Position numbers and translations under genes: made by a program
The notes under the pieces: generated by a model
The model's input: only the letters and a program-made list of their open reading frames with translations
Told to the model about the DNA's origin: nothing
Database searches by the model: none
IMG/VR virus record: IMGVR_UViG_2585427752_000010
Length of the DNA stretch: 19,561 nucleotides
Direction: 5' to 3' (one strand)
From: a virus
Taxonomy: Duplodnaviria; Heunggongvirae; Uroviricota; Caudoviricetes
Part shown: piece after piece, positions 1 to 19,561 of the stretch
How the letters are laid out: every line of letters begins with the position of its first letter
Position numbering within the stretch: position 1 is the first letter of the stretch

Positions 1-1260
1 ATGCCAAAACTCACAGATATGCAGATCCGCGCATGGATAAAGGCGGGAGACAGATTTGATGGCAAGGCAGACGGCAACGGCCTTTATATTTGCTACCCCA
101 AAAACTACACAGCCCCGTTCTGGCGATTCCGCTATAAGCTCGCAGGAAAGCAGCGGGCTATGGTTATAGGCTCTTACTCCGAACTGTCACTATCAAAAGC
201 CAGAGAAACAGCAAAAGAGCTGTCAGCCAGAGTTGCTCTTGGCTATGACGTAGCAGCAGAGAAACAGGAACGAAAAGCTGAAGCACTGGCAAAAATGGAG
301 GCTGAGAAAAACGCCATGCGTGTTTCAGATCTGGCCTCCGAATACTTCGAGCGCCAGATACTTCCGAGATGGAAACATCCCGATATCCTTCGCCGGAGAA
401 TTGATAAGGATATTAACCCCTGCATTGGGCATATGAAGGTAGAGGACGTTAAGCCACGCCACATTGACGACATGTTGAAAGGTATCGTTGACCGAGGAGC
501 ACCAACGATAGCAACAGATGTATTACGCTGGACACGCCGTATCTTTGACTACGGGATAAAACGCCACGCTCTGGAGATAAACCCTTGTTCAGCGTTTGAA
601 GTATCTGATGCTGGTGGTAAAGAGGTTTCCCGCGACCGTTGGCTAACTCGCGATGAGCTTATCAGGCTATTCGAGGCTATGCGCACCGCAAAAGGATTCA
701 GCCGCCAGAACGAACTGACATTTAAGCTATTGCTGGCACTATGCGTTCGTAAGATGGAGTTATGCGCCGCACGATGGGAAGAGTTTGATTTAGATGGTGC
801 GGTATGGCATTTGCCGGAAGAACGCAGCAAAAACGGAGACCCTATTGATATACCTCTACCTTCTCCAGCCGTTGAATGGTTGAGAGAGCTACACACCTTT
901 TCATGTAATAGCGCATGGGTGCTTCCAGCCAGGAAGATGCAAAACAGAATGATCCCACATATTCAGGAAAGCACTTTGCCCGTAGCACTGGCTAAGGTTC
1001 GCGCCGAAATGCCGGATGTGCCTAATTTCACGATTCACGACTTCCGACGCACCGCACGTACTCATTTAGCAGCGTTGGGTGTTGATCCTGTCGTGGCGGA
1101 ACGATGCCTCAATCATCGCATTAAGGGCGTAGAGGGGATTTATAACCGCCATCAGTATTTTGATGAGCGTAAAGCAGCACTGGCACAGTGGGCTGATCTG
1201 CTGGTGGCACTGGAAAGCGGAAAAGACTACAACGTAACGCCTCTCAGAAGGGCGAACTAA
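1..1260 (+). CDS. int: P4-family tyrosine integrase (site-specific recombinase)
   Basis: 419-aa ORF with N-terminal arm-binding-like region and C-terminal catalytic region containing HDFRRTARTHL (H-x-x-R) and a downstream Tyr (GIYNRHQY); overall layout typical of tRNA/tmRNA-targeting P4-like integrases. Gene begins at window position 1, so the att site and any target tRNA lie upstream, outside the window. Confidence 0.9.
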   Translation: MPKLTDMQIRAWIKAGDRFDGKADGNGLYICYPKNYTAPFWRFRYKLAGKQRAMVIGSYSELSLSKARETAKELSARVALGYDVAAEKQERKAEALAKMEAEKNAMRVSDLASEYFERQILPRWKHPDILRRRIDKDINPCIGHMKVEDVKPRHIDDMLKGIVDRGAPTIATDVLRWTRRIFDYGIKRHALEINPCSAFEVSDAGGKEVSRDRWLTRDELIRLFEAMRTAKGFSRQNELTFKLLLALCVRKMELCAARWEEFDLDGAVWHLPEERSKNGDPIDIPLPSPAVEWLRELHTFSCNSAWVLPARKMQNRMIPHIQESTLPVALAKVRAEMPDVPNFTIHDFRRTARTHLAALGVDPVVAERCLNHRIKGVEGIYNRHQYFDERKAALAQWADLLVALESGKDYNVTPLRRAN

Positions 1261-4091: not shown

Positions 4092-4522
4092 CCGTCCAGA
4101 AGAAGACATTTTCACTGGCTGGTATGTCGCCAAAATCCAGCAATATGACGGCAAAGTCAGGCATTAATACAGCAGATACAAGCAAAGTTTATCATTTGCT
4201 GGTGGTCGGAACGGATGCCTTAACCATATCAGAAATCTCGGGCGATGATATTAGCATTGAGAAGGTCAGCGGCTGCGCCAGAGAATTTCTGGTCGTAGAT
4301 GACCTGTTCTGCTCGCGTAGTGACTCCACAAAAACATTCGTCCACGCGCGTGACGTTAACGAAATGAGCGCGATGTACTGTGCTTCTGGTTCTTCCAATA
4401 GTGAGTTTTCGGAGTCCATAAAAAAGAGCTTGCCGTTATGCGGCAACACGGTTTATGGTTATAAGGCACCTCATAAAACGGGTGCCGGGTTTCGCAGCCC
4501 GGAAATGTACGAGGCGACACAT

Positions 4523-4941: not shown

Positions 4942-5152
4942 AACCTACGATGTGCATATGGATCCCCTCGAACGCACAAGCCAGATCATCACACTGACAG
5001 AAGTGATTAATGACATTCTGGTGAGCAACTCTCCCTCACGAGACGAAAAACTGAAGGCGTTACTCGCGATATTGGATCTCGCCGTTCGTGACGTTCATTT
5101 CCTGCTGGAAGGTGGACAAATGCCATGCAAAACGGGGGCAACCAATGAATAA
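4934..5152 (+). CDS. small hypothetical protein (72 aa)
   Basis: ATG at 4934 preceded by GGAGG; product MIKTYDVHMDPLERTSQIITLTEV... is protein-like; it is the in-frame 3' portion of the long 4085..5152 ORF. Confidence 0.55.
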   Translation: MIKTYDVHMDPLERTSQIITLTEVINDILVSNSPSRDEKLKALLAILDLAVRDVHFLLEGGQMPCKTGATNE

Positions 5153-6422: not shown

Positions 6423-6764
6423 ATGATTACTAAAAATTTCCGACTGAATGCGCTGGCAAATAAGTATGCGTCGGCACTGTATAACCACATTACCTCCACC
6501 AGCGGCGGGGACTATTTCATGGTTGATGCGGACGGCGAGGCCGTCCGTGTGGAAATCGTCAATGGAGTAAAAGGCGTTCGCAGCCTGATCGATAGCTACA
6601 CACTGGCAGCCATGAAAGTGTTCTACCCGCAGTGGGAAACCGTGGGGATCGAGCTTCTTGAACGTTGCGTCACTAAGGACGGATTGACTGACGTCGGGCG
6701 TGAGATATGGCAAAGCATGGTTAATGACATGGGCGCAACTGTAGCGGGAGGTTCTCATGCGTGA
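6423..6764 (+). CDS. hypothetical protein (113 aa)
   Basis: ATG at 6423 with GAGGA RBS; stop overlaps the next start. Confidence 0.7.
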   Translation: MITKNFRLNALANKYASALYNHITSTSGGDYFMVDADGEAVRVEIVNGVKGVRSLIDSYTLAAMKVFYPQWETVGIELLERCVTKDGLTDVGREIWQSMVNDMGATVAGGSHA

Positions 6765-7128
6765 AAATGCAGAAATGGCGCTTAGCTCCGCAATCGGAGA
6801 GCAGGTGGCAAAGATTGCTGGTGCTGTGTGGATTCATAACCTTCATTCTACTGGTGAAGAGAAAATGGCAATTCAGACGCCAGAGGGACGCACCATTACT
6901 ACATCTCTGAAGCCGTCAGATGTTTGTGATCTGATTTGCGCATTCATGTACCCAGCAATGAGGACTGTCCACGGCGATAAGTGGAAACTTGCGACAACCG
7001 CTGAATTTGATATGTGGCTAAACAATGATGGCATGCTGACTGATTACGGAATAACCAAGTGGCAGATGCTGGTTAGCCATATCGCAAACGCTATAGACCA
7101 CGTGGGGTACGGTGATGCGAAACATTGA
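6757..7128 (+). CDS. hypothetical protein (123 aa)
   Basis: ATG at 6757 with GGAGG RBS; 3' end overlaps the primase start. Confidence 0.7.
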   Translation: MRENAEMALSSAIGEQVAKIAGAVWIHNLHSTGEEKMAIQTPEGRTITTSLKPSDVCDLICAFMYPAMRTVHGDKWKLATTAEFDMWLNNDGMLTDYGITKWQMLVSHIANAIDHVGYGDAKH

Positions 7129-9466
7129 TCTTATCCGTCAGGTTATCAGTGCGTCTGAAAACAACTGGCCTCATGTGCTGGGCTGCCTGAACATAAATGT
7201 CCCTGACTCTCCGCGCCGTCATGCTCCCTGCCCTGCATGTGGGGGCAAAGATCGATTCCGGTTCGATGACAACGGGCGCGGTAGCTTCATCTGTAATCAG
7301 TGCGGCGCTGGTGATGGGCTGGATTTAATTAAACGCGTAAATAACTGCGACACAACAGAGGCGGCGCTTCTTGCCGCTGATGTTCTGGGTATTGATTACC
7401 GGACAACGGAAACACCAGAAGCCACCAGCCAGAAACGGGAACAACTGGAAACCGAGCGCCAGCGACGCGAACAGGAGCGCCTGAAAAGGGCAGAGAAGGA
7501 CGAACAACAAAGACGGGATACGTTTTCCCGTCAGTTTGATGACATGCGCAGAAAGGCTGTAAACGGCAAATCTGATTATCTGGTTGCGAAAGGGGTAGGT
7601 GATTTTACATTCCCCGTGTTGCCCGATGGATCTCTGTTGCTGGCGCTGGTGGATAAATCCGGCGCAGTCACAGCAGCACAGACTATTACCTCACATGGTG
7701 AAAAAAGACTCCTGACAGGTTCGGCAAAGCGGGGGGCATATCACGCCATAAACGCACAGAAACGACCTCACAGCATCATAATTGCTGAGGGGGTGGCTAC
7801 CGCCCTGTCGTGCCATTTAATTCGCCCTGACGCAATGACAGTGGCAGCAATCGACGCTGGCAACCTGTTGCCAGTAGCGGAAGTCATGCGCAGAACATAT
7901 CCGCAGGCACAAATAATCATTGCTGCAGATAACGATCACCAGCAAGGAGACTCAGAAAGTGGAGGGATCAACACGGGGAAAGATGCCGCAGAGAGGGCCG
8001 CTATTTCCGTAGCTGGCAGGGTGTCTCTGCCACCGACTGACTATAAAGCCGACTGGAACGACTATCACCAACAACACGGGCTGGCGGCAGCCACAGCAGC
8101 ATTTAAAGATTCGATGTACCAGCCACGGGGGAAAGGGGCGCAGGTGAAAAATCACAAACAGTCAGTCGGGGCGCTGAATGAGATCAGTTCTGGCGAGGTG
8201 TTAAGCGATGATGAAATTGCTGTCCTCGAAGAAATCAACCGGACGTTTACGCATGTCACCATCGGCGGGAAACACAAGGTGGGGTCGCTAAAGCCTTCTC
8301 AAACCGGCGGTGTATCGCACGTTTTCGAGGATTTATCACAATTTCAGCATTATTTTCATCATAAACCGAGAGTCGCCAGAAAGCTGGCGGGATCGGCGTG
8401 GCTGTCATGGAGTGGGAAGAACTACAAGCCAGGAGGCGTAGGATTTTATCCAGTACCAGACAAATGCCCTGACGATGTTTTTAATCTGTATGAGGGGCTG
8501 GCACTGGAACCAATTGAAGGAGATTGCACGGTATACCTTAATCACCTGTTGCAGGTTGTCTGTGCCGGTAATGAAGAGGCATACCAATATCTTATCCAGT
8601 GGATGGCGCACATTATCCAAAAGCCTGATGAAAAACCGTCCGTGGCAATCGTGATGAAATCTGTCCCGGGCACAGGGAAAGGCACAACGGTTAAACCGCT
8701 GCTGCAAATACTGGGGCAGTACGCCGCCCACATTAACGGGGCGGGACATATTTCAGGGCGCTTCAATTCAATACTTGCTAACAAGCTACTGGTATTTGCT
8801 GACGAAGTGACGATCCACAAGCCGTCTGAAGCTGACAGACTTAAAGCGATTATTAGCGAACCGACGTTTAACCTTGAGCGCAAGGGAATTGATGCTGAAC
8901 CAATGCCGAATTTTGCCCGGTTGATATTTGCCAGTAACAGCACACAGGTATTACAGGCAGGGATAAGAGAGCGTCGCTATCTCGTGCTTGAGCCATCTCC
9001 TGAAAAAGCACAGAGCCGGGAGTATTTTGATCGGCTGTACAGTTGGCTTAATGATGGCGGTGCCGCAAAGTTGCTTTGGCATCTTAAAGGGGTGGATCTC
9101 TCAGGTTTTGACCCTCAACGAGCGCCACAGACCGATGCCTTACGTGAAGAAATCTTGCTGGGGCTGTCTGGCGTTGAATTGTTTCTTTATGGCGAGCTAA
9201 TCAATGAACCTCCGTTTAATGGCGAAGTCCGTTTGTTTGCAAAGGATATGGTTAGTCGGTTTGTAGCGTGGTCGCTTGAGCGTGGGGAAAAGCTTAAAGA
9301 ACCAGCTGCCAGATCACTACTGGGTAAATCACTTGCACAAATGGGGCTGGTGAAGCATGGAAGACCAGACCGAGGGAATGGCGTGTTCTACGAACTACCA
9401 GAGGTCGGAGTTCTACAGGCTGCGTTTGCCCGTCTGATCGGTATGGGGGGTTATGATGTTTTTTAA
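7112..9466 (+). CDS. P4-alpha-like bifunctional primase-helicase
   Basis: 784 aa; N-terminal zinc ribbon CPACGG...CNQCG; TOPRIM-like motifs IIIAEGVATA and IIAADNDH; C-terminal P-loop NTPase region with Walker A-like PGTGKGTT and Walker B-like LLVFADEV. Start may be GTG 7112 or ATG 7115. Confidence 0.9.
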   Translation: MMRNIDLIRQVISASENNWPHVLGCLNINVPDSPRRHAPCPACGGKDRFRFDDNGRGSFICNQCGAGDGLDLIKRVNNCDTTEAALLAADVLGIDYRTTETPEATSQKREQLETERQRREQERLKRAEKDEQQRRDTFSRQFDDMRRKAVNGKSDYLVAKGVGDFTFPVLPDGSLLLALVDKSGAVTAAQTITSHGEKRLLTGSAKRGAYHAINAQKRPHSIIIAEGVATALSCHLIRPDAMTVAAIDAGNLLPVAEVMRRTYPQAQIIIAADNDHQQGDSESGGINTGKDAAERAAISVAGRVSLPPTDYKADWNDYHQQHGLAAATAAFKDSMYQPRGKGAQVKNHKQSVGALNEISSGEVLSDDEIAVLEEINRTFTHVTIGGKHKVGSLKPSQTGGVSHVFEDLSQFQHYFHHKPRVARKLAGSAWLSWSGKNYKPGGVGFYPVPDKCPDDVFNLYEGLALEPIEGDCTVYLNHLLQVVCAGNEEAYQYLIQWMAHIIQKPDEKPSVAIVMKSVPGTGKGTTVKPLLQILGQYAAHINGAGHISGRFNSILANKLLVFADEVTIHKPSEADRLKAIISEPTFNLERKGIDAEPMPNFARLIFASNSTQVLQAGIRERRYLVLEPSPEKAQSREYFDRLYSWLNDGGAAKLLWHLKGVDLSGFDPQRAPQTDALREEILLGLSGVELFLYGELINEPPFNGEVRLFAKDMVSRFVAWSLERGEKLKEPAARSLLGKSLAQMGLVKHGRPDRGNGVFYELPEVGVLQAAFARLIGMGGYDVF

Positions 9467-9495
9467 TATAGTCTTTTTACAAGAAGATCGTTTTT

Positions 9496-9600
9496 ACCTG
9501 TACCACCTATACCACTTTGCTAATTCAGCATTAAAAACAATGTGTTATAGTGGTACAGGTCAATATCTTACCTATACCAGACCTGTACCACCTATACCAT
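9496..9600. repeat. iteron cluster 1 (putative origin-type repeats) just downstream of the primase
   Basis: ACCTGTACCACCTATACCA at 9496-9514 and 9581-9599, inverted partial copy GTGGTACAGGT at 9550-9560, and partial copy CCTATACCAG at 9571-9580. Confidence 0.6.
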
Positions 9601-9642
9601 TAACAAACGCATTTCTTCTGGCTGGCTGAGAGGGAACAACCA

Positions 9643-9873
9643 ATGATGAGCACACCATTTTACAAAGTGCGCCAGTTAGCTTCTTCCTCTGGCTGGCAGC
9701 TACGGTTTGAGGGGCGTTCAGACTGGCTACCCATTGCGGCATGGGCGAATGTTGAAATGTGTATTGACGGCGATACCGTTGAAATCATTATTCCCTGCGT
9801 GGCAAGTCGGGACGGCTGTATAGAGCCAACAGATATGGCAGCAGAAATCAGAGAGGTAAAACATGAGCAATAA
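9643..9873 (+). CDS. hypothetical protein (76 aa)
   Basis: ATG at 9643 preceded by GAGAGGGAA; stop overlaps the next gene's start. Confidence 0.6.
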   Translation: MMSTPFYKVRQLASSSGWQLRFEGRSDWLPIAAWANVEMCIDGDTVEIIIPCVASRDGCIEPTDMAAEIREVKHEQ

Positions 9874-10600
9874 CTATTGCATACCGCAGGGAATGACCAG
9901 AACGGAGCGCGAAGAATTAAAAAGTTTCGCTACACAGTGCGGGAATGCTGGCGACATCCAAAGTCTGGAACGCACTTTAATTATGATTGCGCACTGGATG
10001 CGTCAGGGGCAAAGGGTTTCATTTACTGAATATGCCAGCCAGTGGACAGAGGCACAGCGCGAACGGAGCGACGGTAATCACTCAACACCCGAAATGGCGA
10101 AGCAATGGCCTTTCAGTGGTAAACGCTGTATCAGTCCCGGTGGTTCAGATTATTACCCTGCTGGTGTGGGAGATGAGCCATGTTGTGACGAGACTGAAAT
10201 CCGCCACGCAGTGACAGTAATTACCGCTGAATACCCACAATTTAACCTTGACGGACTGGCGCTCCACAACCGGAATGCGGACTGGGAAAACCCGCTTGAT
10301 AACCCGTCATTTATCGTATCGGCGAAAAGCTGCCTGAGATGGATCAGAGACAACGGGATGAGTAATGCCCAGATTGAGAGCTTCCCGCAGGATAACCCCA
10401 CATCTGACACGTTGAAGCATGAAGTGGAGCGATATAACCAGATAAACCACCAGCACAGTGATCACCCGCACTATATCCCCAACGGAGCATTTATTGCGGC
10501 GATGGTGGCAAGCGGCTACAAGGTTAAGCCAGCGGGAAGAATGAACGCATTTTTCAATATTTCAAAAAAGGGATTATGTGCTGCTATGGGTAAAAATTAA
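9863..10600 (+). CDS. hypothetical protein (245 aa)
   Basis: ATG at 9863 preceded by GAGAGG; Cys- and His-containing product with no motif recognisable by eye. Confidence 0.7.
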   Translation: MSNNYCIPQGMTRTEREELKSFATQCGNAGDIQSLERTLIMIAHWMRQGQRVSFTEYASQWTEAQRERSDGNHSTPEMAKQWPFSGKRCISPGGSDYYPAGVGDEPCCDETEIRHAVTVITAEYPQFNLDGLALHNRNADWENPLDNPSFIVSAKSCLRWIRDNGMSNAQIESFPQDNPTSDTLKHEVERYNQINHQHSDHPHYIPNGAFIAAMVASGYKVKPAGRMNAFFNISKKGLCAAMGKN

Positions 10601-10605
10601 ATAAA

Positions 10606-10709
10606 TGGTACAGGTCTGTACAGGTGGGGAGAGGTCATTTTTACCCACCTGTACCACCTGCAGGCCGCGTCACACAAGGGTTTGTGACATGGTGGTACAG
10701 GTGGTACAG
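10606..10709. repeat. iteron cluster 2 (same GGTACAGG/CCTGTACC family)
   Basis: TGGTACAGGTCTGTACAGGTGGG (10606-10628), inverted CCCACCTGTACCACCTG (10644-10660), TGGTGGTACAGGTGGTACAGC (10689-10709), plus a GTCACA-N8-TGTGAC inverted repeat (10669-10688). Confidence 0.6.
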
Positions 10710-11074
10710 CAAAAACAGCGATTTTCTTTATAAGGTATGTTTTGCTCATCTGGCAGACGGAGGTATTCGCTGCGGTTTGGCACATAGCCCAGAACAGCAA
10801 AGAGTTTTACGAGACTTTTGTAAAATCCAGTGTACAAGGGCGTGACGTTTTTGAAGGAGAGACCTACGAAATTTTCGTAGTTCAAAAAATAGCCTCTGAG
10901 ATGTTGTTATGCCTGTTCAGCAAACCATCCGCATAGCTGATCGCGAATCAAATTACCAATGGAGCCAGAAGCAAGGGCAGAACTGGAAAGCGCCTGCCGT
11001 GAAGAGTAATGCGACATCGTAAATATAGTTTTTAGAGTCCATAAAAAAACTGTCAAAACCTGACATACAGAACG

Positions 11075-11108
11075 ATGCCACCAGCTACTGAGCGGTGGCA
11101 TTTTTTTG
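11075..11108 (+). terminator. rho-independent terminator
   Basis: ATGCCACC / GGTGGCAT perfect 8-bp stem with 11-nt loop, followed by TTTTTTT. Confidence 0.65.
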
Positions 11109-11169
11109 TGCTATTTGTTTCATATTTTGCAATTACGATGATGAATATTGCGATTTGTGAAACTATAAT

Positions 11170-11380: not shown

Positions 11381-11842
11381 ATGGAACTAAAATTTATTGA
11401 TAACCCTGTGCGATTACAGGCCTTTCTTAACGATCCTGGCAATACCGAAAATATTGTTGAGCCGGGGCACACGTACTACATCAAGCCTGATGCGGTATAT
11501 CTCGGCATCTACGAAGGATTGGTGCTGGCTGGCGTTCATGAAGTGCGTAACTTCTGGCATAGCATTGTTGAATGCCATGCGGTGTACGACCCCGGATTCC
11601 GTGGTGAATATGCACTGCAAGGGCATCGATTATTCTGCAAATGGCTTCTCGAAAACTCACCATTCCTTAACAGCATCACTATGGTTCCTGACACCACGAA
11701 ATACGGACGGGCAATTATCCGTTTGCTTGGCGCTACCCGTGTTGGTCACCTTGATGATGCTTATATCAGATGTGGTAAACCCGTCGGCGTAACGCTTTAT
11801 CAGTTAACTCGGCAACAATATAAGGAATTCAGCGAATGTTAA
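11381..11842 (+). CDS. hypothetical protein (153 aa), second gene of the operon
   Basis: ORF starting 17 nt after the small gene; stop overlaps the next start (ATGTTAA). Confidence 0.75.
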   Translation: MELKFIDNPVRLQAFLNDPGNTENIVEPGHTYYIKPDAVYLGIYEGLVLAGVHEVRNFWHSIVECHAVYDPGFRGEYALQGHRLFCKWLLENSPFLNSITMVPDTTKYGRAIIRLLGATRVGHLDDAYIRCGKPVGVTLYQLTRQQYKEFSEC

Positions 11843-12513
11843 TTACCCATATAGCTCATAAACATCTCAATCGTGCCGTATACGAAAAAGGCGGTGATGG
11901 TGGTGCCTCTAAAGCTCAGGCGAAGGCCCAGCAGCAGGCAATTGATTTGCAGCGCGAGCAGTGGAATACGGTGATGAATAATCTCAAGCCGTATGCAGAA
12001 GTCGGATTGCCTGCTTTACAACAACTACAAGGACTGATGACTCTGGAAGGGCAGAATAAAGCCGCGAATGATTTCTTTGGTTCTGGTTTATATAAAACAC
12101 AGGCAGATCAGGCCCGTTATCAGAACCTTGTCTCAGCAGAAGCTACCGGGGGGCTTGGCTCAACAGCTACCAGTAACCAGTTATCTTCCATTGCGCCCAT
12201 GCTTTATAACAATTGGCTTAGTGGGCAAATGCAAAATTATGGAAACCTGCTAAATGTCGGGATGAATGCGGCATCAGGACAGGCAACGGCAGGGCAAAAC
12301 TACGCCAATAATACCGGACAACTCTTGCAGGGGCTTGGCGCTATTCGTGCAGGTCAGGCGCAGCAGCCATCCAGTCTTGCGCGTGGTATTGGTGGGGCAG
12401 CATCAGGCGCTTTAGCGGGTGCGCAACTTGGTTCCGTTGTTCCTGGAATAGGTACTGCGGCAGGCGCTATTGGTGGTGGGCTTATTGGTCTTGTTGGGGG
12501 GCTTGGATTCTAA
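11836..12513 (+). CDS. Gly/Ala/Gln-rich protein with C-terminal glycine-zipper hydrophobic segment (225 aa)
   Basis: AAGGAA RBS; low-complexity Q/A/G/N-rich body; C-terminus GIGGAASGALAGAQLGSVVPGIGTAAGAIGGGLIGLVGGLGF has repeated GxxxG spacing typical of membrane-inserting glycine zippers. Confidence 0.75.
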   Translation: MLITHIAHKHLNRAVYEKGGDGGASKAQAKAQQQAIDLQREQWNTVMNNLKPYAEVGLPALQQLQGLMTLEGQNKAANDFFGSGLYKTQADQARYQNLVSAEATGGLGSTATSNQLSSIAPMLYNNWLSGQMQNYGNLLNVGMNAASGQATAGQNYANNTGQLLQGLGAIRAGQAQQPSSLARGIGGAASGALAGAQLGSVVPGIGTAAGAIGGGLIGLVGGLGF

Positions 12514-13826
12514 TGGCGACATGGCAACTTGGCGGGCTGCCTAGCATGGCACCGCAAAATGATAATGCTCCTCGTTCTTCCGTTCCTCAGCCTGTGCAGT
12601 ATCAGCAGCAGCCAAACGTAGGTTTAATGGCGCTACAGGGGCTAAGAGGCGTTGCTGAGATTAATCAGCAGGCGCAAATTTCCCAGCAGCTAAAAGAATA
12701 TCAGGCACGGTTGGGTAGTGCGGTAGCTAATAATGATCGTGTTGGCGTGCAGAAGTTAATGGCCCAGTATCCCCAGTTTATGGCTGATTCTCAAAAACAG
12801 ATGGGATTCATTGATGCTGAGCAAAATCGGCAGACCGCTGACGCTGCCATGAATCTGCGTCTTGCGTCACAAACTGGAGATCCACTGACCATGCAGAAGG
12901 CCATTCAGCAGGCAAATCCAGTATTACAGCGATTTGGTCTTCCTGCTGAAGAGGTTTATCAGTCTTGGCAGAATGACCCACAGGAATTCAACAGAATCAC
13001 TGACCTCATCCACCTCCATGCTGATCCAAATAGTTACTTTAGTGTTCAAGAGAAGCAGCAAGGGCAGAGTATTGCACAGCAGAACGCAGATACATCTGCA
13101 TATAATGCTCAGGTTAATGCGGAACAGGGTAATCGGCGTCTCGATATGGAGCAGTTCAAAGCCCTATCCGATAACCAGCTACGCACGAGAGAAATGGTTC
13201 TGAAAGCACGACTTGGACGTGCTCAAAATGACATCGAGAGAGACAAGCTCAATGCTGAACTGAGCAAGGTACAGCAGGCGAAAGTGGAGAAGATGAACGA
13301 TAAAATTAATACTGTTGTAGGTAACATCGACTCCTTGAACTCTGCGCTTGAAGTGGGTCATGAACTGGCGGGAATTGTAGGGAAACATCCTTCGGCCGTT
13401 ACCCGTTCGCAGAACTATAACCCCCTGACGCTGGGGTTTGGATTCCTTCCTGATGTAGCAGAAGACACACGAAGCCTACGCGCCAAAGCTGATGAATACA
13501 ACCTAAAGGTTATTCTGCCTAGCCTCAAAGGGACTTTTGGCTCTAACCCAACCGAAGGGGAAAGGGCTGCCCTTATGCAATCTCAAAATGGCATTAAGTC
13601 AGCAACCAGCAATGAGGCATTTTTGCGAGAGTTGAATAAAGCGCAGGACGTAATTATTCGAATGCAGAAACGACAGATTGCCGGGCTCGGTATTCCTGTA
13701 ACCAAATCTAAGGACGAAGAAACTGATACCAAAATGCTGTTGCAGGATCCTTCTCTGGTTAAGGATTATGTGACCGCACATGGCTATCTGCCGGAAAGTT
13801 ACTATCAGGCAAAACTTAAGGGATAG
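12513..13826 (+). CDS. Gln-rich, probably coiled-coil protein (437 aa)
   Basis: ATG overlaps the upstream stop (TAATG); Q-rich N-terminal half and charged, heptad-like central region. Confidence 0.8.
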   Translation: MATWQLGGLPSMAPQNDNAPRSSVPQPVQYQQQPNVGLMALQGLRGVAEINQQAQISQQLKEYQARLGSAVANNDRVGVQKLMAQYPQFMADSQKQMGFIDAEQNRQTADAAMNLRLASQTGDPLTMQKAIQQANPVLQRFGLPAEEVYQSWQNDPQEFNRITDLIHLHADPNSYFSVQEKQQGQSIAQQNADTSAYNAQVNAEQGNRRLDMEQFKALSDNQLRTREMVLKARLGRAQNDIERDKLNAELSKVQQAKVEKMNDKINTVVGNIDSLNSALEVGHELAGIVGKHPSAVTRSQNYNPLTLGFGFLPDVAEDTRSLRAKADEYNLKVILPSLKGTFGSNPTEGERAALMQSQNGIKSATSNEAFLRELNKAQDVIIRMQKRQIAGLGIPVTKSKDEETDTKMLLQDPSLVKDYVTAHGYLPESYYQAKLKG

Positions 13827-13828
13827 CA

Positions 13829-16549
13829 ATGATGGCACAACTGACAGAAAAACAGAAAGCCTATTCCCGTCATCTCGATGAAAAATATGGTTTCCCATCA
13901 GGGACGATGGAAACATTAGTTGGCAATGAATCTAGTGGTAACGGAAGTGCCGAGTCACCGAAAGGAGCTAGAGGATTTGCTCAACTGATGCCCTCAGTAA
14001 TGAGTGATGCTGGTTATCGTGGAACAGATCCGCGCTCACTGCCATTTGAAAAGCAAATGGATATCGCAGCAAACCATCTCAATAAAGGAATGAAGCGATT
14101 TGGTGATATAGGTATGGCATTGGCTGGGTATAATTCTGGCTATGCTCGTATTAATGCCGTAAGAAACGGTAAATCTACACTGCCAGATGAAACGGCTAAT
14201 TACGTAAGTAAATTTGCAGATGCCGGAATAATCCCTGATGACAGTGAAATCTTGCAGTTTGCACAAACCAGTCAACATCGCAATCTTCAGCAGCCTGACT
14301 ACTCAGAGCTTGATAAAGAAATCTCTCAGGTGGGAGATATTTCTGCATGGGAAGCAAAACGTCAGCAATTTAAGAACATAGAAGCAGGACTACCAACAGC
14401 CAGTTCATGGGAGCAGAAAAGAGCTCAGTTTCTCGCCGATGAAAATGCCGGGGAACCGCAGCAGCAAGTAGCCAAGTCTAACCTTAATCCTGAGATGGAA
14501 TATCTTTCGCCAGGACTGAAAGCTGCGCCAGAGCAGATGGCCAGAGGGATTGCTAATATACCGTTTGATGTAATGGACGCAGGCGTGGGGGTAGTCAATG
14601 CGGCGCAATCAGCCGGAGCATGGGCAGCTCAGAAGCTTGGTGTGGGTGATGGCACATACACGCCCATATCACCTGTCTTTCGCCCAGTAGACCAACCTAC
14701 AGATCCATACGCGCAGGCTGGTGAGCAGCTAGCACCTTACCTTATTACAGGATTAGGTGCAGGAAAGGCAGCTACCGCAGCTTCTTCAGTTGCCAACGCT
14801 CCACGTGCTGAACGTGCGGCCACAAAGGTGGCTAGTATGTTGGCAGAAAACCTGCCAGGTACATTGGTGAACGCCCAAAAGAACGGGCAGATCAGCCCAG
14901 AAGACCTAGCAAAAGAGACAGGTATTGGCCTAGCAGGATCGCTAGGAGCACGCGCTTTAATAAAGAGCGGACAGACAGCCAGTGACGTAATGCGAGATGT
15001 ATTGCGGAGTAATACAAATCAATCAGGCCATGTGTTAGGGGCAGCAAATACTCTGGAAACCGCCAATGATGTATCGAAAGCAGCGCGTTCTGCCGTAGGC
15101 CGAGAGCATATCGCATCGCAGGCATCAAACGTCAGAGATGATGTCGCTAAGGCGGCGAAAATTACTGGTATTAATATCAACACCCTGACGCCTGGAATGC
15201 GCTCAGGTAGTCGTGGAATTGCCCAAGCAGAAGGTGTTCTGGCATCAACTCCTGGGAATGTTCAGGATGCTCACCTTACGGCCTTCAATGAAATATCCTC
15301 AAAGTTGAATAAGCAGTTGTCTGATTTCGGTGCTGAGTCTGGAAGCGCATCAGAAAAAAGCGCAGCAATTAAAGAGCGCATCATCGCGAGCCTCAGTGAT
15401 ATGAAAACAGCAGAGAATATGGCATGGGCAGAACTGCGAAGCACGATGCCACGCGAAAGGATGAAAATGAGTAATGGGATGGCTGTCGTCCAAGCAGAAA
15501 AAGCAGCCAATGTTCCACTCAGCCCGGAGATGAAACAGTTTCAGGCTGCCAACAACCAAGGTGGCGGCATAACCTTCGACGGGATGAAGGCATGGCGTGC
15601 TAAGTTTGCTGATGCTGAACAAGCAAACACCCGGGCAGGTAAGGCCAATGCCGCCCGGATTGCCGGAGAAATGCGCAGAGCTATCACTGATGACATGCGC
15701 ATCATGGCTGAAAAAGGAAACTTCCTCACAGAATGGCAGAAAGCTAACGATCTCTCTAAAAGTTACATTATCGCCAAACAAAATGCCGAATCTGTTTTTG
15801 GTCGAGATCTCGCATCAGACGCTATGGTAAGAAAAGGTGCCGATACGCTTAAGGCATCCGCAAACACTGGAACGGGAGCTTTTCACCGTCTTATCTCCGC
15901 GCTGCCGGAAGCAGAACGCCAACCAGCAATAGCATCTATTCTTCAGCATGCTGTGGCGCAGGGAGAGAAGGGAGGAATCGGTGAAGAATCTGGTATCCAG
16001 TATTTTGCCAAGCTCATGACCCAGCAGAATGTAAACGCCATCAGTCGTCATGCGCCAGATCTCGGTAGAATGATGAAAGAGTTCGGTGTACTCGCTAAAG
16101 CCAGCACCAGACCGCAGCGATACGTAGAGCGCACGGGAAGAACAACTGAGGCTCTCAAAACGCTCGATTCAGGCCTTCCAAAGATCGTCGGCGTGATTAT
16201 GAACGGAGTTCAACAGTCAGGTGCGATCGCTGGAGGCTTTGGCGGTGGTGTAATTGGTTCGATTAGTGGTTTGGTTGCTGGTGGCGCGCTGAGAAATACT
16301 GTGGCTAAGATTGGGGCGACAAGAAGTGGTAGATATGCGATAGAGAAAGCCGTTCAGGAAGCTACAAAAGCAGTGCGCGCAGGGGCATCACCAGCAGCGA
16401 TCGCCGCAGCAGAGAAACGATTTTCGGCCAATAAAATTGCCATGAAAGCAATTCGTGATGCCGTTGGGGCTGAAGAATTCGTGAAACTGACAAGGGCCGG
16501 GATTGTAGCTACCCTCAGTGGCATGAAAGATGTTAGCGAATGGGAATAG
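13829..16549 (+). CDS. large protein with N-terminal lytic transglycosylase (SLT) domain and C-terminal Gly-rich hydrophobic segment (906 aa)
   Basis: N-terminal NESSGNGSAESPKGARGFAQLMP fits the SLT catalytic ES...GA.G..QLMP pattern and ALAGYNSGYARI fits the AYN.G motif; long Ala-rich body; near the C-terminus GGFGGGVIGSISGLVAGGAL. Confidence 0.85.
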   Translation: MMAQLTEKQKAYSRHLDEKYGFPSGTMETLVGNESSGNGSAESPKGARGFAQLMPSVMSDAGYRGTDPRSLPFEKQMDIAANHLNKGMKRFGDIGMALAGYNSGYARINAVRNGKSTLPDETANYVSKFADAGIIPDDSEILQFAQTSQHRNLQQPDYSELDKEISQVGDISAWEAKRQQFKNIEAGLPTASSWEQKRAQFLADENAGEPQQQVAKSNLNPEMEYLSPGLKAAPEQMARGIANIPFDVMDAGVGVVNAAQSAGAWAAQKLGVGDGTYTPISPVFRPVDQPTDPYAQAGEQLAPYLITGLGAGKAATAASSVANAPRAERAATKVASMLAENLPGTLVNAQKNGQISPEDLAKETGIGLAGSLGARALIKSGQTASDVMRDVLRSNTNQSGHVLGAANTLETANDVSKAARSAVGREHIASQASNVRDDVAKAAKITGININTLTPGMRSGSRGIAQAEGVLASTPGNVQDAHLTAFNEISSKLNKQLSDFGAESGSASEKSAAIKERIIASLSDMKTAENMAWAELRSTMPRERMKMSNGMAVVQAEKAANVPLSPEMKQFQAANNQGGGITFDGMKAWRAKFADAEQANTRAGKANAARIAGEMRRAITDDMRIMAEKGNFLTEWQKANDLSKSYIIAKQNAESVFGRDLASDAMVRKGADTLKASANTGTGAFHRLISALPEAERQPAIASILQHAVAQGEKGGIGEESGIQYFAKLMTQQNVNAISRHAPDLGRMMKEFGVLAKASTRPQRYVERTGRTTEALKTLDSGLPKIVGVIMNGVQQSGAIAGGFGGGVIGSISGLVAGGALRNTVAKIGATRSGRYAIEKAVQEATKAVRAGASPAAIAAAEKRFSANKIAMKAIRDAVGAEEFVKLTRAGIVATLSGMKDVSEWE

Positions 16550-16699: not shown

Positions 16700-17398
16700 A
16701 TGATTAAAAATCTTCTTTTAATATTATCCCTGTCATTATTGGCTGGATGCGTACAAAAACCGTTAGTAACGGTCAATGCTTTATCTTCCGGGCAATCTGT
16801 CGGTAAGAAGTTCTTGATCATCCCCGCAAGCCAAGAACTTTGGAACACCAAACAGATTGAATACACTCAAATAGCTACGGTAGTAGCCGCCAGTTTATCA
16901 AGCCAAGGATATACACAAGTTAAAGATGAAAAATTGGCTGACCAGGTAATTCTCTTGAACTTTTTGAGAAGCGGGGCCATTTCAAATACTCGTAATGTAA
17001 CCATCCCAATATACGGGCAAACTGGTGTGAGCTCAGCAACAACGTACGGAAACTCGAACACCACGTTCAATAGTTATGGTGGTGGCTACGGTACAGCTAA
17101 TATCACTGGAACGGCAACAACAGTTTATACGCCTACTTATGGAATTACTGGCGCGTATAACACAACTGTGACGGACACGTTCTACGGCGCAGGGGTGATA
17201 CTCCAGTCGTTTGATGCCAAGGCTTATCTCAATAATAGGCAGATTAATATGTTATGGAAAGTTGGTAGCTCAGTCGTCTCGCAACAGTCTGATGGAATTG
17301 CTGATTACAAGGGGTTGGCGAGAATAGCCGCTAGCTATGCCGGGAAAAATACAGAAGGTGATATAACTTTTAATGTTGACCCTAAAGCACCAAATTAA
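16700..17398 (+). CDS. lipoprotein, Thr/Gly/Tyr-rich (232 aa)
   Basis: Signal peptide MIKNLLLILSLSLLAGC with lipobox LAGC; AGGTGA RBS; mature part rich in T/G/Y/N repeats; lower GC than the upstream operon. Confidence 0.8.
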   Translation: MIKNLLLILSLSLLAGCVQKPLVTVNALSSGQSVGKKFLIIPASQELWNTKQIEYTQIATVVAASLSSQGYTQVKDEKLADQVILLNFLRSGAISNTRNVTIPIYGQTGVSSATTYGNSNTTFNSYGGGYGTANITGTATTVYTPTYGITGAYNTTVTDTFYGAGVILQSFDAKAYLNNRQINMLWKVGSSVVSQQSDGIADYKGLARIAASYAGKNTEGDITFNVDPKAPN

Positions 17399-17405
17399 CT
17401 AATAA

Positions 17406-17427
17406 GCCCGGTACGCCGGGCATTTAT
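17406..17427 (+). terminator. weak terminator-like hairpin after the lipoprotein gene
   Basis: GCCCGG-tacg-CCGGGC perfect 6-bp stem followed by a T-poor tail (ATTTAT). Confidence 0.35.
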
Positions 17428-17562
17428 GCCCCTATTATTCATGAATCGCTTTTTCTAGAAGGTATGCGACAAACGTTAAGTGACATTGCCTACACATTCG
17501 GGGCGGGATTTCAAATCCGCTCCCAGTTGATGGGGTCGTTACAGTACGCGCATATCCGCTTT

Positions 17563-17633
17563 ATGTGAAACAGGAAGATTTTTCTGATATCACTGCCACA
17601 GCAAAACACCAATTTCGTGACCAGTACGCGCAC
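17563..17633. repeat. copy A of a ~70-bp repeat family (copies B at 17838-17867 and C at 19473-19543)
   Basis: A and C align over ~70 bp (ATGTGA.A..GGA.G.TTTTTC.GA.ATCACT ... CAATTTC..GA.CA.TACGCGC) with small indels; B is a shortened copy (CTGATAT-TTTGCGACAAGTACGCGCGCG); a fourth core CAGTACGCGC lies at 17542-17551. Confidence 0.6.
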
Positions 17634-17895
17634 GATGGAGGGGAGTACCATAAAACTGTTCTCTACATAAGTCAGAGTGGTGGTGATGTGTTGATTATCG
17701 GCGTATATGCGCACAGGACGCGCTATGACGATGTTTTATGCGGGTACACCAATCACATGTATCTGGTGTGATAAATCGCGTTACATGACCTCTCATGTTG
17801 TGCTGGTGGTTATCACGACGTTCTGAATCTGGCCTTTGCCTGATATTTTGCGACAAGTACGCGCGCGTAGCATCGACAGCATACACATTGGATAT

Positions 17896-18117
17896 TCATT
17901 TTGTGACCAATGCGATAAGTAGCGGGATAAGAATTGATAAAATCAACAGGCCGATGATCCACTTTTGATTTTCACTGGCCTTATCTCTATTTTCATCAAT
18001 CTTATCAATAATTCGACGCTCCAAGCCGTGCATATCACCGCGAATGGCAATCATCTCATTGCGAACATCCGAGAAGTGGTTGGCTTGATGTTCAATGTGT
18101 GGCGTTCTGCCTTTCAT
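17896..18117 (-). CDS. small tail-anchored membrane protein (XhlA/holin-like topology, tentative), 73 aa
   Basis: ATG at 18117 (minus strand) with GAGGA RBS; charged N-terminal region followed by a single C-terminal hydrophobic helix WIIGLLILSILIPLLIALV. Confidence 0.6.
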   Translation of the reverse strand: MKGRTPHIEHQANHFSDVRNEMIAIRGDMHGLERRIIDKIDENRDKASENQKWIIGLLILSILIPLLIALVTK

Positions 18118-18196
18118 GCCTGATCCTCACCCATCGTCACCACCTGCTGGTGTATAAAGGTATTGGCGCAAGCGGCTTTCCTATGGGCACTCATGT

Positions 18197-18652
18197 TTAT
18201 ACGCTGACCTTACAATCAATCACCGCTTTTAACTTTTCAGCATTGCTTCCCTGACGCTTCCACGCGCTGTAAATATCTTTATCCCACGCTTTACCAGCTT
18301 TTGTTTGATAGCCTGCTTCATTGATCCGTTCAGCTATCACACGCCCATTATCAAATCCCTGTTGGATGGTATCGGCAATGATCTTTATAACTGCCGTTTC
18401 GTTATATGGCTTTGGTGGGATGTTCGGCTTTCCGGCAATAAGCGACGCAGCGGCTTTTTCCATGCGCTCCACCAGCCCAAGCATTCGTGAATCAATAGAC
18501 TTTTCCGGCTGTCTCAGCTTCATGCGAATCGCATCAACAAGCCAGGAGGTTTTATCCCCTCCAGAAGCGAGAACAGACCGATTAAACTCATCCTGCAATT
18601 CAGATGGGATGCGGAACGCGACCAGATTAGATTTGCTCATTGCAAAGACCAT
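18197..18652 (-). CDS. RHH-like DNA-binding protein (151 aa, or 147 aa from the alternative start at 18640)
   Basis: N-terminus SNLVAFRIPSELQDEFNRSVLASGGDKTSWLVDAIRMKL has a strand-helix-helix pattern; no clear SD for either candidate start. Confidence 0.65.
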   Translation of the reverse strand: MVFAMSKSNLVAFRIPSELQDEFNRSVLASGGDKTSWLVDAIRMKLRQPEKSIDSRMLGLVERMEKAAASLIAGKPNIPPKPYNETAVIKIIADTIQQGFDNGRVIAERINEAGYQTKAGKAWDKDIYSAWKRQGSNAEKLKAVIDCKVSV

Positions 18653-18671
18653 ATCAGTGAGTAATATCCAT

Positions 18672-18701
18672 ACAGTATACCACTGTATAACACTGTTATA
18701 C
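18672..18701. promoter_or_regulatory. paired palindromes upstream of the minus-strand RHH-like gene (putative operator)
   Basis: ACAGT-atacc-ACTGT (18672-18686) overlapping a 17-bp palindrome GTATAACA-C-TGTTATAC (18685-18701). Confidence 0.45.
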
Positions 18702-18753
18702 GCTCAAATATCAGCCAGAAAATAACGGACCAATCACAAAGCTATCGCTGTGT

Positions 18754-18875
18754 TGTTGGTTCAGAGCTGGGCTGTGTTGGTTCAAAATGAGTTGATGTTG
18801 GTTCAATATTTCAGAAAAAACACAATAAAAACAACGATCTTTACAAATTGAACCAACTGAACCAACTGAACCAAC
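18754..18875. repeat. phased iteron array: 3 direct TGTTGGTTCA repeats at 21-bp spacing plus 3 tandem inverted TGAACCAAC repeats
   Basis: TGTTGGTTCA at 18754, 18775 and 18796; AT-rich spacer; TGAACCAAC x3 in tandem at 18849-18875, ending 17 nt before a TATAAT (18893-18898) upstream of the PerC-like gene. Confidence 0.65.
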
Positions 18876-18911
18876 ACCTTTTTGCTTATCTATATAATCT
18901 GAGAGGCAGAA

Positions 18912-19199
18912 ATGATAAGGGACAGGAAAGCTGAAGAGCTGGAGTCAAAAGGGCTATACCGGAGAGCTGCCGCACGATGGGCAGAAGTCATGATGCTGGC
19001 AGATGGCGATAAAGAACGTGAACATGCAGCAAACAGACGTTCTGAATGTATCCGTAAGGCGGCACGCCCACCAGCAACTACAGACAGATTCGGAGATTTA
19101 AGACAGGCAGTTAAGCGGACTCATTCGGCTCTTGGTATGGATGAGGAAGCGAGAGGGTACTTCAGGCGTTATCGCGATAAAGATTGCCAGAGACAGTAA
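18912..19199 (+). CDS. PerC-family transcriptional regulator-like protein (95 aa)
   Basis: GAGAGG RBS; N-terminus MIRDRKAEELESKGLYRRAAARWAEVM resembles PerC/Pch regulators of E. coli prophage-like elements (recalled, not searched). Confidence 0.6.
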   Translation: MIRDRKAEELESKGLYRRAAARWAEVMMLADGDKEREHAANRRSECIRKAARPPATTDRFGDLRQAVKRTHSALGMDEEARGYFRRYRDKDCQRQ

Positions 19200-19272
19200 T
19201 GCTCTCTCTGTTTTGGCAAATTACCCCTCACTTTGAAGGGATCGGAGCTATAAAAATGGTTTTAGGTACATT

Positions 19273-19372
19273 CCTCAAATTGAGGATTGTGGGAAAACCA
19301 ATGGGTTAGGCTTTTCCCCCAATGGGGGTTTTCGAAAGAATCAATGGGTTAGTCCATCGTGCAAATTTGCAC
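19273..19372. repeat. cluster of palindromes and direct repeats downstream of the PerC-like gene
   Basis: CCTCAA-A-TTGAGG (19273-19285); CCAATGGGTTAGG-like direct repeats starting at 19298, 19319 and 19341 (21-22 bp phase); perfect 14-bp palindrome GTGCAAATTTGCAC (19359-19372). Confidence 0.55.
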
Positions 19373-19561
19373 CATGCCAGCCAACGCAATTTCTCGTTGG
19401 CGAAAATATCAGGTATTTACTGAACGAACGGTCTACCAGTCTGTTCAGTTACCAGTTGCATATGGCTGTTTCATGTGAGAACGGAGGTTTTTTCGGACAT
19501 CACTATTGGGTACAGCAATTTCACGAGCAATACGCGCGCGCAGGACAACAAGCCTGAACAT

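Follow-up and report, generated by a model that had tools for sequence, protein, structure and literature searches.

The right end of the DNA analysed here, a stretch of 19,561 nucleotides that we call the window, carries a family of short repeats, and the question that this locus raises is where such repeats come from and what they might do for the element that carries them. The window is a 19-kb E. coli island in the 3' end of yicC. Mapping of the island ends against the empty site of K-12 showed that the 3' end of yicC serves as the att core and that the attR core lies just past the window end, about 180 bp beyond the last repeat (copy B below). The main features of the island are as follows.

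1..1260, plus strand: tyrosine integrase with an arm-binding domain, marking the left end of the island
2436-2639: excisionase-like HTH protein (Pfam/PHROG scan)
4466-4543, plus strand: isrK; 4606-4693, plus strand: C4 antisense RNA; together a P4/P1-type RNA immunity region
7112..9466, plus strand: P4 alpha-like primase with Zn_Ribbon_Prim (zinc ribbon), Toprim_3 and DUF5906 domains
11381..16549, plus strand: homologues of P22 genes 14, 7, 20 and 16 in P22 order, for head morphogenesis and ejection proteins

The hallmarks of P4-like satellites are present, namely a P4-type integrase (Arm-DNA-bind_3 and Phage_integrase domains in the Pfam scan), an alpha-type primase, an AlpA/Vis-like regulator and CI/C4 RNA immunity, with C4, isrK and int-alpA as the RNAs identified. 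The homologues of genes 14, 7, 20 and 16 tie the island to P22-like helper phages. Terminase, portal and capsid families were absent from Pfam and PHROG scans of 24 of the larger ORFs, which include all those of at least 200 aa, and tblastn with three types of small terminase (TerS) found no full-length homologue in this or any of the related island loci; the island has no recognisable terminase gene. The capsid-size and late-control genes psu, delta and sid were not found among the Pfam/PHROG-scanned ORFs, and P22-type ejection genes are there instead. The right-end module contains a 73-aa gene, a 151-aa gene, iterons and perC. The island's own iteron-like repeats, at 18750-18880 and 9492-10715, are unrelated in sequence to the repeats considered here, and a search of genome contigs with PerC gave no match.

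The first-pass annotation had described two long homologous segments, a shortened copy and a core-only copy that bracket this right-end module, and most of that description holds. Local alignment of 17550-17639 with 19458-19545 gave about 70% identity with small indels and a score of 59, against 22.9 ± 2.6 (maximum 33) in 500 shuffles, so that the homology is real, although the left limits lie slightly further out than described, at about 17535 and about 19447. A repeat search united 17612-17637, 17845-17870 and 19518-19543, the second being the shortened copy, in one family at 77% identity, and the core-only copy at 17542-17551 is exact. With up to one mismatch, the AGTACGCGC core occurs at 10 sites in the window (3.3 ± 1.8 expected), half of which fall in 17543-19537, all on the plus strand. 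The module does sit between copies, at 17846-17867 and 19519-19540, and perC modules of thrW-type islands are flanked by copies as well. Both long segments turned out to be composite, each consisting of a unit resembling the pac site of P22 (17574-17595; 19484-19505) followed by a CAGTACGCGC unit (17613-17634; 19519-19540), and related units were found elsewhere in the window. All are listed here.

4233..4339, minus strand: fragment of a P22-type terS (gene 3) with its own pac variant, GAATGTTTTTGTGGAGTCACTA, at 4339-4318
4404..4425, plus strand: third-type unit (M2), AGTTTTCGGAGTCCATAAAAAA, 40 nt upstream of isrK
10870..11048, plus strand: further unit cluster upstream of the ejection-protein operon (M2-like at 10870-10891; P22-pac-like, 15/22, at 11001-11022; M2 at 11027-11048)
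17535..17559, plus strand: degenerate unit A0, GTCGTTAC (identical to P22 pac over the 3' half of that site) joined to a CAGTACGCGC core
17574..17595, plus strand: P22-pac-like unit (M2') of segment A, GAAGATTTTTCTGATATCACTG, 16/22 against P22 pac
17601..17634, plus strand: Sf6/HK620-terS-like unit M1, copy A1, GCAAAACAC CAA TTTCGTGACCAGTACGCGCACG
17640..17658, plus strand: degenerate third-type (M2-like) unit, GGGGAGTACCATAAAACTG, to be compared with GAGTCCATAAAAAAG
17846..17867, plus strand: M1 copy C, TTTTGCGACAAGTACGCGCGCG, 17/18 nt against Sf6/HK620 terS
19484..19505, plus strand: P22-pac-like unit (M2') of segment B, GAGGTTTTTTCGGACATCACTA, 14/22 against P22 pac
19519..19540, plus strand: M1 copy B, TTTCACGAGCAATACGCGCGCG

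In E. coli the 17500-17876 segment (546 records) mostly has a form that exceeds that of the window by about 50 bp, and in the four copies that were read fully (L001, L002, L003 and L005) the surplus consists of another CAGTACGCGC unit together with a 43-bp hairpin; the single hybrid unit of the window looks like the product of a deletion between two CAGTACGCGC units.

The copies are non-coding here, as had been supposed: the frame that would read F-x-D-Q-Y-A-R is mostly closed by a stop directly 5' of the F codon, no other frame is consistently open through the island copies, and the frame of segment B is broken between its halves. Small coding ORFs were considered and rejected, as their peptides had no Pfam/PHROG match and no plasmid tblastn match, and their frames are closed. 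Frame-preserving conservation had been named as a sign of paralogous coding sequences; codon-like conservation does exist, but its source is phage terS and not coding paralogues of the island. The suggestion of a structured small RNA did not survive, with no Rfam match beyond noise in 17000-19561 at E values up to 10 and folding z-scores of 0.0 to 0.85 on both strands. Nor did a crude duplex scan place the repeats among the best target sites of the C4 antisense RNA. A recombination-related function, also suggested previously, is weakly supported by the deletion between copies and by cargo breakpoints that adjoin copies.

Each unit corresponds to a 22- to 30-nt piece of a phage terS gene, and three kinds are present in the island, co-oriented with its genes: an Sf6/HK620 type with the CAGTACGCGC core, a P22 type and a third type, GAGTCCATAAAAAA. 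M1, the CAGTACGCGC unit, corresponds to the codons F-R-D-Q/K-Y-A-R in terS of the Sf6/HK620 type. When its pattern, TTYNNNGANMARTACGCGCRCG, was searched in IMG/VR, at least 123 sites were found, 89 of them inside TerS-like ORFs reading ..STVFRWL....EFRDQYARAREAQAD.., and GATTTTCGCGACAAGTACGCGAAG is present in both Sf6 gp1 and HK620 gp3. Copy A1 additionally keeps the AKH codons that precede the GATTTTCGCGACAAGTACGCGAAG match, its translation AKH-Q-FRDQYAH standing against AKHEDFRDKYAK in Sf6 gp1, and a scan with the Sf6/HK620 24-mer gave 2 matches in the window versus 0.03 in shuffles.

In both long segments M1 is preceded by GAAGATTTTTCTGATATCACT, a unit that matches the annotated and genetically mapped 22-bp pac site of P22, GAAGATTTATCTGAAGTCGTTA, which is an asymmetric sequence within terS (PMC9611059). 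The best match in the whole window is the one at 17574-17595 (16/22), with others at 4339-4318 on the minus strand (15/22, or 21/28 with flank) and 19484 (14/22); taken singly these matches are modest, and about six sites with at least 14/22 are expected by chance, which counts against a packaging function. With the flank counted, P22-pac-like units of related islands attain about 23/28. In unit A0 the next stretch, CGCGCATATCCGC, aligns to CGCACATATCGCC of P22 gene 3, and the 102 nt at 4233-4334 on the minus strand are 92% identical to that gene and overlap its annotated pac site. For the third unit, TTTTCGGAGTCCATAAAAAA, which stands at 4404 and 11027, the match is to a third TerS type found in P22-like phages, ..STINKWKLDYPKFSESIKKGK.., which has the same C-terminus as Sf6 gp1. 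The phage counterpart of this unit codes for FSESIKK, and 96 of the unit's 120 matches in IMG/VR lie inside third-type TerS ORFs. In a MAFFT alignment EDLSEVVTRA of P22, EDFRDKYAKA of Sf6 and PKFSESIKKG of the third type share columns, so that all three units derive from the TerS position that is the P22 pac site. Presumably the pac site of Sf6 also lies at the aligned position of the unit. Leavitt et al. 2013 are reported to have located it only as far as the part of gene 1 that encodes the DNA-binding domain. By these comparisons, the identification of the units as short non-coding copies of the pac-bearing part of phage terS genes is well supported. BLAST of the repeat region against phages was uninformative, the units being too short for it, and a literature search with the repeat sequence strings returned nothing relevant.

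The units are also widely conserved. Across 80 primase-anchored islands (1.38 Mb, from Enterobacterales to Neisseria), 111 units share the strand of the primase gene and 2 lie opposite, the respective counts being 56:2 for M1, 35:0 for M2 and 20:0 for M2', where shuffles predict about 1, 0 and 0 per strand. They are often found in arrays, with 34 of the 55 M2 and M2' units within 300 nt of an M1, and they are non-coding across the related islands. Conservation is limited to the unit of about 25 nt, the flanks being unconserved, and the units are asymmetric in their logo and fixed in orientation; the sole exception in the window is the minus-strand terS fragment at 4233-4339, whose position opposite to all other units counts against a role in packaging. 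The occurrence of the same M1 sequence within the primase gene in some islands of the Morganella type counts against it as well, and one distant relative (L072) has a unit inside the Toprim-coding region. An origin of the units as fragments of the island primase gene was nevertheless rejected, as the copy flanks show no further primase similarity and the terS match covers far more copies.

Arm-type sites of the integrase were likewise dismissed, as the units occur in yicC-type islands, in thrW-type islands, where the P arm diverges (L003), and in Neisseria islands; the thrW-type integrases of L005 and L007 are known from annotation. The repeat that is present in both att arms is GTGTACATA..GGTGTACATAAT and not the CAGTACGCGC unit, and the arm repeats being of the GTGTACATA type, a relic attR of a tandem island was discarded too. 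Between 17520-17760 and the P arm a weak extended similarity appears only under over-lenient scoring.

These observations lead us to propose that the island probably uses the terS-like units for packing into the heads of P22-like helpers, as pac-site mimics that recruit the helper terminase. Binding of TerS to the units and their function in packaging are what we infer from sequence, and even with P22 specific binding has proved difficult to demonstrate, its TerS not having been shown to bind pac oligonucleotides in vitro (PMC9611059). When a P22-like helper grows in a cell that carries the island, the island would excise and replicate by means of its own primase, the TerS ring of the helper would bind the units on island concatemers, and TerL would cut close by, so that headful packaging would load helper capsids with island DNA; the products of the island's gene 14, 7, 20 and 16 homologues would then enter the particle. 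With several TerS specificities on offer, one island could use helpers with different terminases. Part of the appeal of this proposal is that pac-site mimicry by a satellite has a precedent in PLE and its helper phage ICP1.

The same sequence evidence would equally suit units that act as decoys, titrating helper TerS away from the phage genome in an act of interference or defence, and multi-copy arrays would make good sinks. In related islands Abi- and ImmA/IrrE-type cargo adjoins the repeats, while a PerC-family regulator is carried by all of them, and variable cargo of this defence type would fit such a role. We nevertheless regard a decoy function as unlikely, as the island has genes for virion ejection proteins and its own replication module, which are sensible for an element that travels in helper particles, and as the strict co-orientation of the units is relevant to directional packaging and irrelevant to a sink. 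Similarly improbable, in our estimate, is that they are operators or promoter-upstream sites for a regulator of the island (ribbon-helix-helix or AlpA) or of the host, controlling the immunity RNA operon and its neighbours, with the likeness to terS due to a shared regulator acting at helper terS or to descent without shared function. Many arrays do lie directly upstream of the isrK/C4 promoter, where a regulatory role would fit too: in many Enterobacterales islands a succession of M1 and M2 stops about 40-85 nt short of the isrK start, M2 precedes two operon starts in the window (at 4404 and 11027), and in Providencia and Morganella an M1 flanks a small ribbon-helix-helix gene that is followed by an array of about eight units of about 30 nt. 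The copies at 17846 and 19519, however, have no co-directional gene downstream, no sigma-70-like promoter was detected in 17300-19561, the Neisseria units follow the primase gene where there is neither isrK nor C4, and three types that match different TerS families are hard to square with one regulator.

Alternatively, the units could be non-functional scars of terS, left by recombination between islands and P22-like prophages and kept by hitch-hiking. A plain 102-nt terS fragment does exist at 4233-4334, copy A1 of the window would itself be a deletion product between two copies, and conservation of 17500-17876 among E. coli islands is no better than that of the rest of the island. Random decay, however, should leave varied parts of terS, whereas more than 110 copies from Escherichia to Neisseria keep only the same stretch of about 25 nt equivalent to pac, and the 111:2 strand bias and the mixed-type arrays argue for selection; we therefore give the scar explanation little credence. 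Still less probable is that the units exist as short homology boxes that aid exchange of modules between islands or with helper terS. Breakpoints in E. coli genomes do fall at 17876, about 10 bp past copy C, and at 19477, where segment B starts; the cargo between copy C and the 151-aa gene differs, two island types have copies on either side of the perC module, and one deletion between two copies was observed. But about 20 nt is short for RecA-dependent exchange, and the pac-region origin of three terS types would be left unexplained. Such exchange is compatible with packaging and could accompany it as a side effect. The stretch from the end of the 73-aa gene (17896, minus strand) to a terminator-like hairpin at 17421-17406 contains copies C, A1 and A0; there, minus-strand transcripts from the 151-aa/73-aa operon would carry the reverse complement of the units and might act as antisense to helper terS mRNA. 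Of all the explanations we find this one the hardest to believe, given that neither copy B nor the arrays that precede isrK have such a placement, that there is no structure signal and no Rfam family, and that the putative complementarity is 20 nt.

Comparison with known systems brings out what would be particular to packaging by such units. The P22 pac site and the island units share GAAGATTT.TCTGA..TC..TACGCGAG (at 17574-17595 and in better-preserved relatives) and are both asymmetric and oriented, and the other two unit types stem from the aligned position of other TerS genes. The P22 site, however, lies inside terS, whereas the island units lie outside any terS, in several copies and mixed arrays, and the candidate island sites differ from it at 6-8 of 22 positions. 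A parallel for the proposed mechanism is PLE of Vibrio cholerae, in which a 14-bp likeness to the ICP1 pac region is required for transduction (Boyd and Seed, bioRxiv 10.1101/2024.04.22.590561). Like the island, PLE is a satellite without a recognisable TerS that carries a short helper-pac-like stretch, but it has one site, one helper and the dedicated packaging proteins Gpi and GpsA/B (bioRxiv 10.1101/2024.04.22.590561), while the island, known from sequence alone, has units of three TerS families in many copies and arrays and points to the P22-like helper group.

The cos satellites (P4 with P2, SaPIbov5 and the E. coli PICIs) similarly combine the helper's packaging signal with the helper's terminase, whereas packaging of the island would be headful (pac). 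With P4 in particular the island shares the integrase type, the alpha-like primase and C4/CI-type RNA immunity, but psu, delta and sid belong to P4 and the P22-type ejection genes to the island. P4 also has two separate sets of the same iterons (ori and crr), upstream of the immunity region and between the alpha gene and attP, and in the island family sets of units likewise precede the immunity RNAs or sit close to attP towards the right end; the P4 iterons (TGTTCACC) are bound by alpha for replication, however, while the island units are terS-derived and occur with two primase types. Type 1 SaPIs are packaged into helper capsids by a pac-type mechanism, using their own TerS, which switches the specificity, and their own pac site (PMC6893505), whereas the island encodes no TerS and seems instead to imitate the sites of the helpers themselves. 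It is quite possible, though we hold this more tentatively than the packaging proposal itself, that these islands form an undescribed satellite family of P22-like and other headful phages, with their own ejection proteins and with multi-specificity arrays of minimal pac sequences taken from at least three TerS families.

To our knowledge, pac sites have been mapped in very few phages. If our reading is true, the units of 22-30 nt delimit pac for two terminase types in which it is so far unmapped, the Sf6 type (PF20901) and the 'FSESIKKGK' type, and pac sites and helper range could be read from genomes by purely computational means. Should the units work as pac, they would define, for three TerS families together, the smallest sequence that is recognised, make it possible to predict the phages by which a common class of E. 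coli and Enterobacterales islands can be mobilised, and extend mimicry, shown so far for cos and for one pac (that of Vibrio PLE), to multi-helper arrays. The Pfam family 'Ash' and several 'hypothetical proteins' annotated in these islands are translations of the RNA genes or of these DNA signals.

The stretch is almost exactly one genomic island, and E. coli strain 4750 carries the same DNA between yicC and dinD (locus L001). The att core, taken from the K-12 empty site, comprises the final ~21 nt of yicC (CAGATTCAGAAYATYGAATAA), and the window runs from the integrase ATG to ~170 bp short of attR. From left to right it holds the following features.

Left end, first in order: tyrosine integrase with an arm-binding domain
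After the integrase: AlpA/excisionase-like HTH protein
After the HTH protein: AntA/B antirepressor
Listed between antirepressor and primase: RNA genes int-alpA, isrK and C4
After the RNA genes: P4 alpha-like primase
After the primase: homologues of P22 genes 14, 7, 20 and 16, in P22 order
Right of the gene 16 homologue: 500-bp non-coding stretch with most of the repeats inside
Minus strand: two genes, of 73 aa and of 151 aa with a ribbon-helix-helix-like N-terminus
Between the minus-strand genes and perC: iteron/AT-rich region
Right-most: perC

No terminase, portal or capsid genes were found in the island. A total of 546 E. coli records contain segment 17500-17876, their islands being inserted at yicC, thrW or elsewhere, and variable cargo (Abi, ImmA/IrrE, HTH proteins) lies just to the right of this segment. 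This cargo hotspot adjoins a short repeat copy, C (17846-17867), on the right (window 17876-18776; 8430-10700 and 6430-7765 in the related loci L002 and L003), and its content varies among E. coli islands, with Abi, ImmA/IrrE metallopeptidase, HTH regulators and others replacing the 73-aa gene.

The repeat family described in the first-pass annotation is real: segments A (17550-17639) and B (19458-19545) align locally with a score of 59, against 22.9 +/- 2.6 and a maximum of 33 in 500 shuffles, and a 26-nt family unites 17612-17637, 17845-17870 and 19518-19543. Its core, AGTACGCGC, is over-represented in the window (10 sites vs 3.3 expected), five of the ten being clustered on the plus strand in 17543-19537. 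In one frame the core reads F-x-D/E-Q/K-Y-A-R/H and resembles paralogous coding sequence, but segment B requires a frameshift. Conceptual peptides of the repeats matched no protein family. In a set of 55 copies drawn from many genera, the F codon is usually preceded directly by a stop, and none of the frames remains open consistently, which bears out the earlier view that the repeats are non-coding; the suggestion of a small structured RNA did not hold, since the repeats have no Rfam family and no fold stabler than shuffled sequence (z-scores 0 to 0.85).

Sequence comparison makes it close to certain that the units come from terS, the small terminase gene, and three types can be told apart: M1 (Sf6/HK620-like, bearing the core), M2' (P22-pac-like) and M2 (a third TerS type). 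The P22 record annotates the packaging recognition site, pac, as GAAGATTTATCTGAAGTCGTTA within gene 3 (terS); the best island M2' copies match this site and its 3' flank at ~23/28, and the window's best match is 17574-17595 (16/22). On the minus strand, a 102-nt fragment at 4233-4334 is 92% identical to P22 gene 3, overlaps pac and adjoins an M2 unit at 4404. The P22-like coliphages Sf6 and HK620 carry GATTTTCGCGACAAGTACGCGAAG, which copy C matches at 17/18 nt, copy A1 (17601-17634) also retains the preceding AKH codons, and a scan with the Sf6/HK620 24-mer gave two window matches vs 0.03 by chance. When viral contigs were scanned with the M1 pattern, at least 123 sites were returned, 89 of these 123 in TerS-like ORFs reading ..STVFRWL....EFRDQYARAREAQAD..ADEILEIAD; the gene for the 183-aa TerS of phage zth2-2, for example, which sits just ahead of that for the large terminase, contains gag ttt cga gac cag tac gcg cac. 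M2 fell in TerS ORFs reading ..STINKWKLDYPKFSESIKKGK.. at 96 of 120 matches; one such TerS has a C-terminus identical to that of Sf6 gp1 and is therefore the terminase of a P22-like phage in which the DNA-binding domain has been exchanged. In a MAFFT alignment of the TerS types, P22 EDLSEVVTRA, Sf6 EDFRDKYAKA and PKFSESIKKG occupied one set of columns, and all three units thus trace back to a single terS position, which in P22 is the mapped pac site. The Sf6 pac site reportedly lies in the part of gene 1 coding for the DNA-binding domain, as Leavitt et al. are said to have described in 2013. P22 pac is a 22-bp asymmetric site inside terS (PMC9611059).

Across 80 primase-anchored loci from Enterobacterales, Aeromonas and Neisseriaceae, M1, the CAGTACGCGC unit (logo a.aaTTTc..gACCAGTACGCGCGcG), is conserved over only about 25 nt and lies 56:2 on the primase strand vs the other, where chance would give about one on each. 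M2 (TTTTCGGAGTCCATAAAAAAG; 35:0) and M2' (GGAAGATTTTTCTGACATCACTACGCGAGG; 20:0) usually accompany M1, and arrays of 25-35-nt units are frequent. Such arrays end 40-85 nt upstream of isrK in many Enterobacterales islands, follow the primase gene in Neisseria and flank a small ribbon-helix-helix gene in Providencia and Morganella; no locus holds a full-length TerS homologue. In the window both long segments are composite, M2' then M1, and a decayed M2 comes after segment A. Most E. coli islands are ~50 bp longer at L001 20214-20290 (window 17613-17634), and in those longer copies that were read a 43-bp insert bearing a perfect hairpin (CAGTTGCAAAA..TTTTGCAACTG) stands between two M1 units; the window's single hybrid M1 unit looks as if it arose by deletion between two M1 copies.

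These terS-derived units, non-coding, restricted to the ~25 nt equivalent to pac, co-oriented, arrayed and widely conserved in islands without a recognisable terminase gene, are probably pac-site mimics, which is the best-supported reading of their function. We infer TerS binding and packaging of the island as follows: the island would excise, replicate with its own primase and show helper-type pac sequences to the helper, whose TerS and TerL (large terminase) would pack island concatemers by headful into helper capsids, the island's own ejection proteins entering along with the DNA. Several TerS specificities among the units would widen the helper range.

Alternatively, the units might act as a TerS decoy without packaging, which we consider unlikely. 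An operator or promoter-upstream role fits the location upstream of isrK and around the ribbon-helix-helix gene but not the three TerS-specific sequence types or the copies without downstream genes, and is improbable to a like degree. Neutral terS scars, for which we likewise see little chance, would hardly keep a constant 25-nt span, a 111:2 strand bias and such taxonomic breadth. Short homology boxes for module exchange would suit the breakpoints at 17876 and 19477, the apparent deletion between two M1 copies in the window and the bracketing of perC by copies in both of two island types; as the function of the units this has a slim chance, and such exchange probably occurs as a side effect. 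A role as antisense RNA directed at terS mRNA is very improbable.

Satellite mimicry of packaging signals is already known: the Vibrio satellite PLE mimics 14 bp of the pac site of its helper ICP1 and needs the mimic for transduction (bioRxiv 10.1101/2024.04.22.590561). Type 1 SaPIs use a TerS and a pac site of their own (PMC6893505). The searchable literature yielded no account of multi-specificity terS-derived pac arrays in P4-like islands with P22-type ejection genes.

Other repeats accompany these islands. GTGTACATArrGGTGTACATAAT repeats, likely integrase arm-type sites, lie in both att arms (L001 3339-3395 and 22232-22256), just beyond both window ends, and two more TGTACA copies adjoin int in L001. 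At 17820-17831, just before copy C, the first 12 nt of the att core (yicC end) recur as their exact reverse complement, GTTCTGAATCTG; the extended inverted match is 16/18 and also occurs in thrW-type islands. Three direct TGTTGGTTCA and three inverted TGAACCAAC repeats surround an AT-rich stretch at 18750-18880, between the 151-aa gene and perC, likely a replication origin or operator; its homologue in the distant relative L072 (4265-4408) is directly 3' of the primase gene. Downstream of the window's primase, GGTGGTACAGG / CCTGTACCACC repeats (9492-9515, 10605-10715) are similar in form to P4 type-1 iterons (GGTGAACA) and may be ori/crr-like sites of that primase. A hairpin with a T-run (GATGCCACCAGCTACTGAGCGGTGGCATTTTTTT, 11049-11115) immediately 3' of M2 at 11027-11048 could be a terminator, or a small-transcript end ahead of the ejection-protein operon. 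In Providencia/Morganella islands (L162 19430-19640; also L072 8650-8780), an iteron-like ~22-bp repeat, T.CTAACA..T.CTAACGTTTT, occurs in 4-5 copies in AT-rich DNA after the unit array.

An M1 sequence also lies inside the primase gene of Morganella-/Limnobaculum-type islands (L072 2057-2078, L128 10766, L187 10781), encoding FRDQYARA immediately ahead of the Toprim DxD motif, where other primases have LRDKYPSA; either chance or an embedded signal could account for it. An Rfam int-alpA RNA motif (1269-1335, 60.6 bits) follows the integrase, ahead of the next ORF, and also occurs in related islands. ORF 4085-5152, annotated "ash family protein", has a Pfam Phage_ASH domain at aa 124-232 (4454-4781) that coincides exactly with the isrK (4466-4543) and C4 antisense RNA (4606-4693) genes; the Phage_ASH family looks as if it were conserved RNA genes read as protein.
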